Sequence record: MZ417521
DNA length: 64,000 bases
Strand: one strand, 5' to 3'
Source: Escherichia phage 132
Part shown: one piece after another, positions 3,071 to 50,364 of the stretch
How the letters are laid out: every line of letters starts with the position of its first letter
Numbering within the stretch: position 1 is the stretch's first letter
Position numbers and translations under genes: made by a program
Notes under the pieces: model-generated
What the model saw: only the letters and a program-made list of their open reading frames with translations
The model's database searches: none
Told to the model about the DNA's origin: nothing

Positions 3071-4695
<1,625 letters not shown>

Positions 4696-39819: not shown

Positions 39820-41407
<1,588 letters not shown>

Positions 41408-48556: not shown

Positions 48557-48661
48557 ATTATTTTCCTCTTTTAATCATCAGCAGTATTGCCGATAGTTGT
48601 ATAGTACCATGGAATGACAAGAATGTAAACTGTTTTGTGAAAAAATTTTAAAATAAAAAAA

Positions 48662-48680
48662 GGGGACCTCTAGGGTCCCC
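48662..48680 (-). terminator. Intrinsic terminator hairpin after gene 32
   Basis: GGGGACC-N5-GGUCCCC stem followed on the mRNA by a U-run. Confidence 0.65.
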
Positions 48681-48702: not shown

Positions 48703-49611
48703 TTAAAGGTCATTCAAAAGGTCATCCAGGTCCGTGTCATCAGCACCAGATGAACTGCCAGAGCTTGAGCTCATAAAATCATCTTCAGTTTTTGTTTTGA
48801 AGTCATCAACATTGAATGCATCCAAATCATCAGCAACTTTATCAGCTTTCTTAGCGGCAGTTGCTGCGGCACCGCCCATAGCAGCAGTTCCCATAACTTG
48901 ACTGAACTTAGTGCTCAGTTCTTCAAACGATTTGAATTTATCTTTAGAAGTCATTTCAGAAAGGTCAACCATTTGTTCGAACAGTTCTTTCTGGAAAGAT
49001 TCATCATCAATGTTTGGAATCGCAGATTGATTCAGGAATTTAGATTCGTCGTAGTTACTAAAACCAGAAACTTGTTTAACTTTCAGTACAAAGTTAGCAC
49101 CTTCCCACGGACAAGTTACATCAACCGGAGTTTCACCCATTTCAACATCAACTGCAATCATTGCATTGATTTTATCCCAGATTTTCTTACCGAAACGGTA
49201 TTTAAATACTTTACCTTCATTTTCTGGAGCAGCTGGGTCTTTTACTACAAGAATGTTAGCCCAGTAAGAAGTTTTACGTTTAACAAGACCGTACTCTTTA
49301 TTGTCAGTGTTATACAAATCATTTTTACTGATGTACTGACATACTGGACAAGAATCGTAATCACCGTGGGTAGATGAACAGTTTTCAATATACCATTTAC
49401 CATTTTTCTTGAAACCGTGATTTACAAGAATTGCGAATGGTGCTTGTTCATCATTTTTAGACGGAAGAAAACGAATTACTGCTTGACCGTTACCCGCATT
49501 GTCGAGTTTCAGTTTCCACTCGCCTTTATCTTCAGAAGAAAAACCACCTTTATTTCCAGCCAGTTTAGCCATTTGTGCAGCGAGTTCAGCAGTAGATTTA
49601 CGTTTAAACAT
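48703..49611 (-). CDS. 32: Single-stranded DNA-binding protein gp32
   Basis: 302 aa; [17 protein letters not shown]... and acidic Ser/Asp-rich C-terminus match T4 gp32 by recall. Confidence 0.96.
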
Positions 49612-49677
49612 TTTTATTTCCTTTTTAATTTAATTAACAGTTGGTGCTATGACGATGTATGACCTCATAGCTGGTCA
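49612..49677 (-). promoter_or_regulatory. Gene 32 autoregulatory translational operator: H-type RNA pseudoknot (49646-49677) plus A/U-rich unstructured leader
   Basis: On the mRNA: UGACC-A-GCUAUGA-GGUCA-UACAUCG-UCAUAGC, two interleaved stems, then 34 nt of A/U-rich sequence to the AUG. Confidence 0.75.
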
Positions 49678-49710
49678 GTGAGATAATTATAATCTATTTA
49701 TAATAAGCAA

Positions 49711-50364
49711 TTAATACTTGCAGGATTTCACAGTTTCAATGAAAACACTTTTGGCTTTCTGTGAATCAATATTTAAAATTTTTCTATAAGCTTTTAACTT
49801 TATAGAATAATTATTCCAGATTAAATTATCAGTCTGTTCATCATGTTTATCAATTATATTTAAAAACGAATCAAGCAAGATAAACGTCTCAAACGAAATT
49901 ATATTCGATTGAAGTAGTTTAAAAATATAACTTGATTGAACTTTTGGATTATATTCAAAGATTTCTTTAAAAGCAGAAACTTCAACTTTTTTACTAAAAT
50001 AGTAAATATTGCGAATATCTTCTTCAAACTTAAATTTAATTTGCTTTAAGCGTCCGATATATTCACGATAAAACACAAGTGCATCAGCGTCAGAGATGTC
50101 ACCAATCCAAGCATCCTGGTTAGCAACAAGATTGCTTATAAAGATTAAAGCAAGTTCCTTTAATTTATATTTTTCTGATAACTTCTGGAAAAAATACTTA
50201 TCCCTTCGCTTTTGATAAGCGGCATCAGACACCCGCATGCACCAATTATACTTAATTACATCATACTTTCCATTCATATGTTGTTTTATCATTAAGTATA
50301 ATTTATAAACTGATTTACCATCAATATATCTTTCACCACCAGCAGGCATGCGGAGTTTAATCAT
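49711..50364 (-). CDS. 59: Helicase loader gp59
   Basis: 217 aa; matches T4 gp59 by recall. Confidence 0.93.
   Translation of the reverse strand: MIKLRMPAGGERYIDGKSVYKLYLMIKQHMNGKYDVIKYNWCMRVSDAAYQKRRDKYFFQKLSEKYKLKELALIFISNLVANQDAWIGDISDADALVFYREYIGRLKQIKFKFEEDIRNIYYFSKKVEVSAFKEIFEYNPKVQSSYIFKLLQSNIISFETFILLDSFLNIIDKHDEQTDNLIWNNYSIKLKAYRKILNIDSQKAKSVFIETVKSCKY

Follow-up and report, generated by a model that had tools for sequence, protein, structure and literature searches.

The minus strand upstream of gene 32 in Escherichia phage 132 contains two pairs of complementary segments that interleave. This raises the question of whether the mRNA forms a pseudoknot there, and whether that pseudoknot is the operator through which gp32 represses its own translation. 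In what follows, the window is the whole 64,000-nucleotide stretch of DNA that was analysed, and positions are counted from its first letter.

The region is very probably the gene 32 translational operator of T-even phages in its T2-type form. As such, the element is already known: it is the classical gp32 autoregulatory operator, described between 1988 and 1999 and solved by NMR. Its recognition from raw sequence alone makes the site a positive control involving a real RNA pseudoknot. What may be new is the wider spread of the structure among the Straboviridae, and its co-occurrence with a segG-like gene in Dhakavirus. For this wider distribution, a literature search of incomplete coverage returned no describing paper.

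Sequence elements at the site

The pseudoknot sits on the coding strand of gene 32 and runs from −66 to −35, counted from the AUG; T-even operators lie in the gene 32 leader and end about 35-40 nt before the AUG. Its parts, in mRNA order, are:

49673..49677, minus strand: 5' arm of stem 1, UGACC, pairing with 49664-49660
49672..49672, minus strand: loop 1, a single A, read from the sequence
49665..49671, minus strand: 5' arm of stem 2, GCUAUGA, pairing with 49652-49646
49660..49664, minus strand: 3' arm of stem 1, GGUCA, partner of UGACC
49653..49659, minus strand: loop 2, UACAUCG, 7 nt, T2-type (the same loop appears in PMC5684407)
49646..49652, minus strand: 3' arm of stem 2, UCAUAGC, partner of GCUAUGA

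All 12 pairs of this structure (49677..49646, minus strand) are Watson-Crick. The geometry is H-type, with a stem 1 of 5 bp, a loop 1 of 1 nt, a stem 2 of 7 bp and a loop 2 of 7 nt. Stem 2 directly abuts stem 1, as in T-even operators, in which stem 1 has 4-5 bp and loop 2 has 5-7 nt. An earlier sequence-only reading had proposed the interleaved stems UGACC/GGUCA and GCUAUGA/UCAUAGC, and every arm, coordinate and length it gave is correct.

The surrounding features are:

49711..50364, minus strand: gene 59, the helicase loader (Pfam T4_Gp59_N 1.1e-53, T4_Gp59_C 8.8e-52)
49713-49711, minus strand: gene 59 stop codon TAA, 33 nt before the pseudoknot
49612..49645, minus strand: A/U-rich leader ACCAACUGUUAAUUAAAUUAAAAAGGAAAUAAAA, 34 nt with 6 G/C (82% A+U)
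49645-49637, minus strand: conserved ACCAACUGU within the leader, read from the sequence
49637-49634, minus strand: leader repeat UUAA
49633-49629, minus strand: leader repeat UUAAA
49628-49622, minus strand: leader repeat UUAAAAA
49622-49619, minus strand: Shine-Dalgarno AGGA, within the leader
49611-49609, minus strand: gene 32 AUG, directly after the leader
48703..49611, minus strand: gene 32, an ORF of 302 aa (Pfam gp32 1.8e-66)
48655..48680, minus strand: terminator-like hairpin GGGGACC-CUAGA-GGUCCCC (48680-48662) plus U-run, from a consensus scan only

The leader thus has what a T-even operator has at this place: an unpaired A/U-rich tract with three UUAA(A) units and AGGA. Its length had been put at about 34 nt up to the AUG, which proves exact. 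It had also been called unstructured, and in a nested minimum free energy (MFE) fold the whole leader is indeed unpaired. That fold contains the stem 2 hairpin alone, at −11.4 kcal/mol. The accompanying z-score of −1.67 is unremarkable and also uninformative, because a nested model cannot represent pseudoknots.

Occlusion of the leader by an upstream ORF had been named as something that would count against an operator. No ORF covers the structure, and in the ORF list of the window no minus-strand ORF crosses 49710-49612. A programmed −1 frameshift pseudoknot, which would be found 5-9 nt past a slippery heptamer within a translated ORF, was rejected for the same kind of reason: the structure is not inside a translated ORF, gene 59 ending 33 nt upstream. 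On the other side of gene 32, the predicted terminator begins 22 nt past the stop codon, and its hairpin would mark the end of the transcription unit.

Relation to characterised operators

The gene 32 mRNA pseudoknot of phages T2/T6 was reportedly the subject of work by Du, Giedroc and Hoffman in 1996. A 201-nt query around the site matches Escherichia phage BP32 at 100% identity and phage T2 at 98.5%, with 657 matching phage records in all. Where genes 59 and 32 are neighbours, the match extends over the entire query. In T4 it starts only at the pseudoknot, because segG lies between its genes 59 and 32. This match pattern around the 59-32 junction identifies the window as a T2-type Tequatrovirus.

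By NMR, the T2 gene 32 pseudoknot has been solved as two coaxially stacked stems (Holland et al. 1999; PDB 2tpk). The construct is the 36-nt gcugaccagcuaugaggucauacaucgucauagcac, with an H1 of 5 bp, an H2 of 7 bp and loop 2 uacaucg (PMC5684407 Table 1). Window positions 49678-49644 equal nucleotides 2-36 of this construct (35/36 nt). The sole mismatch is the non-native 5' G of the construct; the RNA itself has no differences. The T2 leader is also identical, and in T2, as in the window, gene 59 lies directly upstream without segG.

Comparison with the T4 gene 32 leader had been suggested as a check, and it comes out well: T4 and the window share stem 2, loop 1, the ACCAACUGUUAAUUAAAUUAAA... 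leader, the Shine-Dalgarno and the start codon. In both, a UUAA(A) tract comes after the pseudoknot, and the repressors are closely similar. Window gp32 aligns over its full length with T4 gp32 (structure 8gme, E 9e-195, ~97% identical). Its N-terminus, MFKRKST, keeps the cooperativity motif KRKST. The protein also has the zinc ligands His65, Cys78, Cys88 and Cys91, none of which varies across a 10-genus alignment (A1).

There are differences as well. Stem 1 of T4, UGCC/GGUA, has 4 bp including a G-U pair, against 5 bp in the window. Loop 2 is AAGUG (5 nt) in T4 and UACAUCG (7 nt) in the window, and the T4 leader has 39 nt rather than 34 through one extra AAUUA unit. The segG frame enters the 5' half of the T4 pseudoknot, whereas the structure in the window is fully intergenic. 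This overlap of segG with the 5' part of the T4 pseudoknot has already been published (PMC535899).

In T4, a pseudoknot of ~28 nt begins 67 nt before the AUG. Behind it comes a tract of more than 40 nt that carries UUAAA/UAAA repeats and takes in the ribosome-binding site (PMC535899; PMC3014915). Our own count places the T4 pseudoknot at −67 to −40, in agreement with this description. The repeats are described as essential operator elements (PMC535899). Autogenous repression needs both pseudoknot and tract, and the pseudoknot is regarded as the site where cooperative binding of gp32 is nucleated (PMC535899; PMC3014915). McPheeters 1988 and Shamoo 1993, as cited in PMC535899, report that gp32 recognises the pseudoknot and that it is needed for repression.

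RB69-like Mosigvirus leaders have the same geometry and position as the window. Compensatory substitutions have altered two of the pairs in stem 1 and one in stem 2, and the leader is longer, at 43-63 nt, with AAUAAUCUA-type repeats. For RB69, probing has shown the RNA structure, and repression and footprinting by RB69 gp32 have been demonstrated (Borjac-Natour, Petrov & Karam 2004, PMC535899). T4 gp32 and RB69 gp32 leave different footprints on the two RNAs (PMC535899). The operator architecture that the sequence-only reading had recognised, a pseudoknot plus an A/U-rich UUAA(A) leader including the ribosome-binding site, is therefore the one published for T4 and RB69.

Another kind of translational pseudoknot was considered and rejected. 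In the mRNA bound by ribosomal protein S15, pseudoknot and ribosome-binding site overlap, and the 30S subunit becomes trapped. The pseudoknot in the window ends 35 nt upstream of the AUG without such overlap; its end at 49646 is 24 nt upstream of the Shine-Dalgarno. E. coli rpsO (S15) likewise encodes an autogenous repressor that recognises a pseudoknot in its own mRNA leader (PMC3014915). Repression of gene 32 differs in that the protein spreads cooperatively over a single-stranded tract, unlike S15-type entrapment.

A search of Rfam 15 over 49300-50000, with E up to 10, gave no family that matches the pseudoknot. The best overlapping match is DUF2815 RNA, at 19.1 bits against a gathering threshold of 41.2 (E 0.81), with an alignment confined to the Shine-Dalgarno/AUG stretch.

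Pairing statistics and covariation

H-type pseudoknots were sought with our own scanner, which requires perfect pairing, a stem 1 of at least 4 bp, a loop 1 of 1-2 nt, a stem 2 of at least 6 bp, a junction of 0-1 nt and a loop 2 of 2-10 nt. The pseudoknot in the window scores 30. When the 150-nt upstream region was shuffled 3,000 times with its dinucleotides preserved, only one shuffle reached this score. Natural controls were 314 windows of 130 nt from gp32 coding sequences. With the strict scanner, 3 of these score at least 26, a background of ~1%, and none scores at least 28. A relaxed scanner has a high background, with 70/314 control windows at 26 or more and 0/314 at 34.

Two other sites in the 128 kb of the window (both strands) also score 30, at 3773..3742 and 40881..40848, both on the minus strand. 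These are probably chance. Because such unrelated sites exist, the pattern alone is not decisive, and the case for the pseudoknot rests on position and covariation.

The gp32 loci found number roughly 2,400 in all. The upstream regions of gene 32 were compared in 20 annotated phages and ~150 IMG/VR loci. The same geometry recurs among these leaders at 23-63 nt from the AUG, in most variants with A(A)CCAACUGU or a close variant of it directly 3' of the pseudoknot. Written as stem 1, loop 1, stem 2, stem 1, loop 2 and stem 2, the variants are:

T4: UGCC-A-GCUAUGA-GGUA-AAGUG-UCAUAGC
RB69-like Mosigvirus: AUACC-A-GCUACGA-GGUAU-AAGUG-UCGUAGC
Winklervirus CHI14: AUGCC-A-GGUGUGA-GGCAU-UAUG-UCACAUC
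L032: as CHI14, except stem 2 5' arm GAUGUGA
Klebsiella K65-type: GUCC-A-GUUGCAA-GGAC-CCAUG-UUGCAAC
Klebsiella Marfa: GUCC-A-GGUGCAA-GGAC-CCACG-UUGCAUC
L049: as Marfa, except loop 2 UCAUG and stem 2 3' arm UUGCACC
VR5 / Bp7: ACCU-A-GUUAUCA-AGGU-AAAYG-UGAUAAC
L112: UACC-A-GAUGCAA-GGUA-AUG-UUGCAUC
Acinetobacter ZZ1: GAAGCUU-A-GGUACAC-AAGCUUU-(19 nt)-GUGUAUC
L130: CCAU-A-GGCAUAC-AUGG-(21 nt)-GUAUGUC

L130, with a score of 26, was accepted only for its geometry, its position and the ACCAACUG anchor that it shares with ZZ1.

When 9 variants are aligned in true register, 95.4% of cells are paired; paired percentages here and below are partly circular, since the variants were picked by a scanner that demands pairing. 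Changes on both sides occur in 8 of the 12 pairs. The covariation score is 0.722, against 0.225 in shuffles (0/500 reach it) and at most 0.19 in slid registers. With 12 variants, drawn from T2, T4, RB69-like, Winklervirus, Klebsiella, Dhakavirus and Acinetobacter phages, both sides change in 11 of the 12 pairs (5/5 in stem 1, 6/7 in stem 2), and the score is 0.870, against 0.271 in shuffles (0/500) and at most 0.157 in slid registers.

Stem 2 is paired in 100% of cells across the 12 variants, and the inner four pairs of stem 1 are unbroken in all of them. The outermost stem 1 pair is unpaired in 7/12, so that stem 1 has 4 bp in many lineages. The single A of loop 1 is invariant in 12/12 core variants (alignment column A6). 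G-U pairs are found at stem 2 position 2 in four variants, and also in stem 1 of T4. These would be C-A mismatches on the other strand, which points to selection on this RNA strand. The covariation that had been asked for thus upholds both stems. Evidence free of the circularity lies in the position of the pseudoknot and the motif beside it, which are conserved, in the unchanging loop 1, in the slid-register control and in the low background.

How the element would act

By homology with T4 and RB69, we infer that gp32 binds and represses translation at the T2-type sequence as well. The leader mRNA would fold compactly, as an H-type pseudoknot whose stem 2 stacks on stem 1. When gp32 is in excess of the available single-stranded DNA, it would bind this pseudoknot and then polymerise cooperatively, 5' to 3', over the adjacent unstructured UUAA(A)-rich leader. 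The resulting gp32 coat would cover the Shine-Dalgarno and the AUG. With both coated, ribosomes would be excluded and gp32 synthesis would stop.

The sequence just before the pseudoknot deserves attention too. Between the gene 59 stop codon and the pseudoknot, three promoter-like elements are packed into 25 nt (49686-49710):

49710-49704, minus strand: MotA-box-like TTGCTTA, read from the sequence
49702-49695, minus strand: late-promoter consensus TATAAATA, read from the sequence
49691-49686, minus strand: −10-like TATAAT, read from the sequence

By the T4 middle and late promoter consensus sequences, these are putative promoter elements. Transcripts from them would start a few to ~12 nt upstream of the pseudoknot. 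Only 4-5 nt separate TATAAATA from stem 1, which it precedes, in the leaders of RB69-like phages, Winklervirus and L112. At that short distance, late transcripts of these phages may begin at or inside stem 1.

Processing in T4 also occurs near this point. Every T4 gene 32 transcript is cut by RNase E at −71, and the gene 32 mRNA is the most stable T4 mRNA (PMC3014915). The T4 sequence at the RNase E site is GAAUUAUGCC, and upstream of the pseudoknot in the window there is GAUUAUAAUUAUCUCAC, which is A/U-rich. This stretch may hold an RNase E site comparable to the one at −71 in T4.

These data bear on a different reading, in which the pseudoknot mainly shapes the 5' end of the mRNA: as a stable structure beside the RNase E site and the promoter-proximal end, it would guard gene 32 mRNA against decay, with gp32 nucleation secondary or absent in the T2-type phage. 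In T4 the RNase E cut at −71 and the start of the pseudoknot at −67 are close together on that very stable mRNA (PMC3014915). Promoter-like elements lie 4-17 nt upstream in the window and in most variants, which would place the pseudoknot at the very 5' end of the RNA. Yet the footprints and mutants cited in PMC535899 show recognition of the pseudoknot by gp32 and a requirement for it in repression, and a main role in mRNA stability is improbable. The stability and operator roles are not mutually exclusive, and the evidence here is compatible with both.

The remaining explanations dispense with an operator pseudoknot altogether. If only the 7-bp hairpin GCUAUGA...UCAUAGC formed, UGACC/GGUCA would be incidental; the nested fold does return just this hairpin, and stem 1 is short at 4-5 bp. 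But all 5 stem 1 positions change on both sides while the four inner pairs stay unbroken, and the exact sequence has been solved by NMR as a two-stem pseudoknot (PDB 2tpk), which makes the hairpin alone very unlikely. Equally hard to credit is that the element acts as DNA, for instance in a promoter, as the target of a homing endonuclease or in recombination. It does adjoin promoter-like sequences, and the 59-32 junction is the insertion site of a segG-type endonuclease in T4 and Dhakavirus Bp7. Pairing is nevertheless kept through G-U, the interleaved two-stem layout has no DNA rationale, and the sequences of the arms are free to vary. Chance complementarity in an A/T-rich intergenic region might be suggested by the two unrelated sites of equal score, but the shuffles of the leader, the 12 covarying variants at the homologous position and the identity to a characterised RNA (T2, 2tpk) leave it with almost no probability. 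The T2-type gene 32 operator remains the preferred reading.

Occurrence in other phages

Is this part of a larger family? The chances appear evenly balanced that a much broader, uncatalogued Straboviridae RNA family exists beyond T4/T2/T6/RB69, absent where gene 59 abuts gene 32, and with segG-linked spread in Dhakavirus.

Covarying versions are found in Winklervirus (CHI14, Gravdalen), in Klebsiella phages (K65-type, Marfa), in segG-carrying Dhakavirus-type phages (Bp7, VR5) and in a 176-kb IMG/VR phage. Acinetobacter phages ZZ1 and L130 have a long loop 2 of 19-21 nt.

The pseudoknot was not found in the leaders of Gelderlandvirus STP4-a, Karamvirus KMB17, Kanagawavirus KLB31 and Pseudotevenvirus D6b, nor in those of Dhakavirus C6, Aeromonas phage L9-6, Acinetobacter phage Ac42 and the cyanophages. 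The leader of Krischvirus RB49 has no pseudoknot either, and the literature agrees (PMC535899; PMC3014915). In STP4-a, KMB17, KLB31 and D6b the gene 59 stop codon is just 3-27 nt before the gene 32 AUG. Given that several related genera lack the pseudoknot, it is not required for gp32 function as such.

With at least 12 covarying variants, the comparative set could seed an Rfam family, as none exists. It adds two things to the known operator: the absence where genes 59 and 32 are tightly packed, and the co-occurrence with segG. A 2010 review asked that gp32 autoregulation be studied more widely among T4-related phages, and the set goes part of the way towards this.

The segG connection is as follows. 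The Dhakavirus-type phages Bp7 (L174 336-1054) and VR5 (L040) have an ORF between genes 59 and 32 that matches T4 SegG over its C-terminal 136 residues at 63% identity (BLASTP, E 1e-60). Pfam found no domain in the inserted ORF of Bp7. Both phages have this segG-like ORF and the pseudoknot; C6 (L017), L035 and L038 have neither. In Dhakavirus the operator may thus travel with segG, via endonuclease-driven co-conversion. If true, this means that such co-conversion can spread a regulatory RNA.

There are also enlarged candidates, in DLP2 (Acinetobacter, L019) and in the Yersinia phages TG1 (Tegunavirus) and fHe-Yen9-01 (L042 and L128-L129). These have a stem 1 of 8 bp, a loop 1 of 5 nt ending in A, a junction of 4 nt, a stem 2 of 7 bp (GGUGUAC or GGUGUAG) and a loop 2 of 9-13 nt. 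DLP2 and TG1 score 34 in the relaxed scan, a value that none of the 314 control windows reaches. Since the stems of close relatives are identical, there is no within-group covariation for DLP2 and TG1.

Two sets of matches were discarded. In cyanophages, TAGT-A-TGCTAC-G-ATTA-CACA-GTAGCA (L088, L091, L096, L099, L100) was rejected as a distant homologue because it overlaps a TTGAC-N17-TAcGAT promoter-like site, which would put the 5' arm upstream of the transcript start. The inverted repeat TGCTAC...GTAGCA upstream of cyanophage gp32 (~330-375) co-varies to TGTTAC...GTAACA, and it resembles a promoter or DNA operator element rather than an mRNA pseudoknot. In Gelderlandvirus (L009, L028, L029), the match (AU)AAUUU-A-GUUUGGU-C-AAAUU(AU)-...-ACUAAGC, 99 nt upstream of gene 32, scores 24-28. 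It was treated as probable chance, being inside the gene 59 coding region and not conserved in Karamvirus.

Some genera without the pseudoknot (L009, L011, L015, L020; 280-300) carry repeated AAACUGU units at the 3' end of gene 59. These resemble the ACCAACUGUUAA that follows the T-even pseudoknot (window 49645-49630). In Yersinia phage MHG19, such a stretch is kept after an inserted endonuclease gene.

Finally, leader length varies by short tandem units (window 49637-49622; L001 430-455; L006; L007). Tequatrovirus leaders have 33, 34, 38, 39 or 43 nt through extra AAUUA/UUAAA units; the window has 34 nt, T4 39 nt and ES26 43 nt. Mosigvirus Shf125875 has three copies of AAUAAUCUA, which brings its leader to 63 nt, compared with 45 nt in relatives. 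The number of leader repeats could set how many gp32 monomers it takes for the coat to extend as far as the ribosome-binding site.
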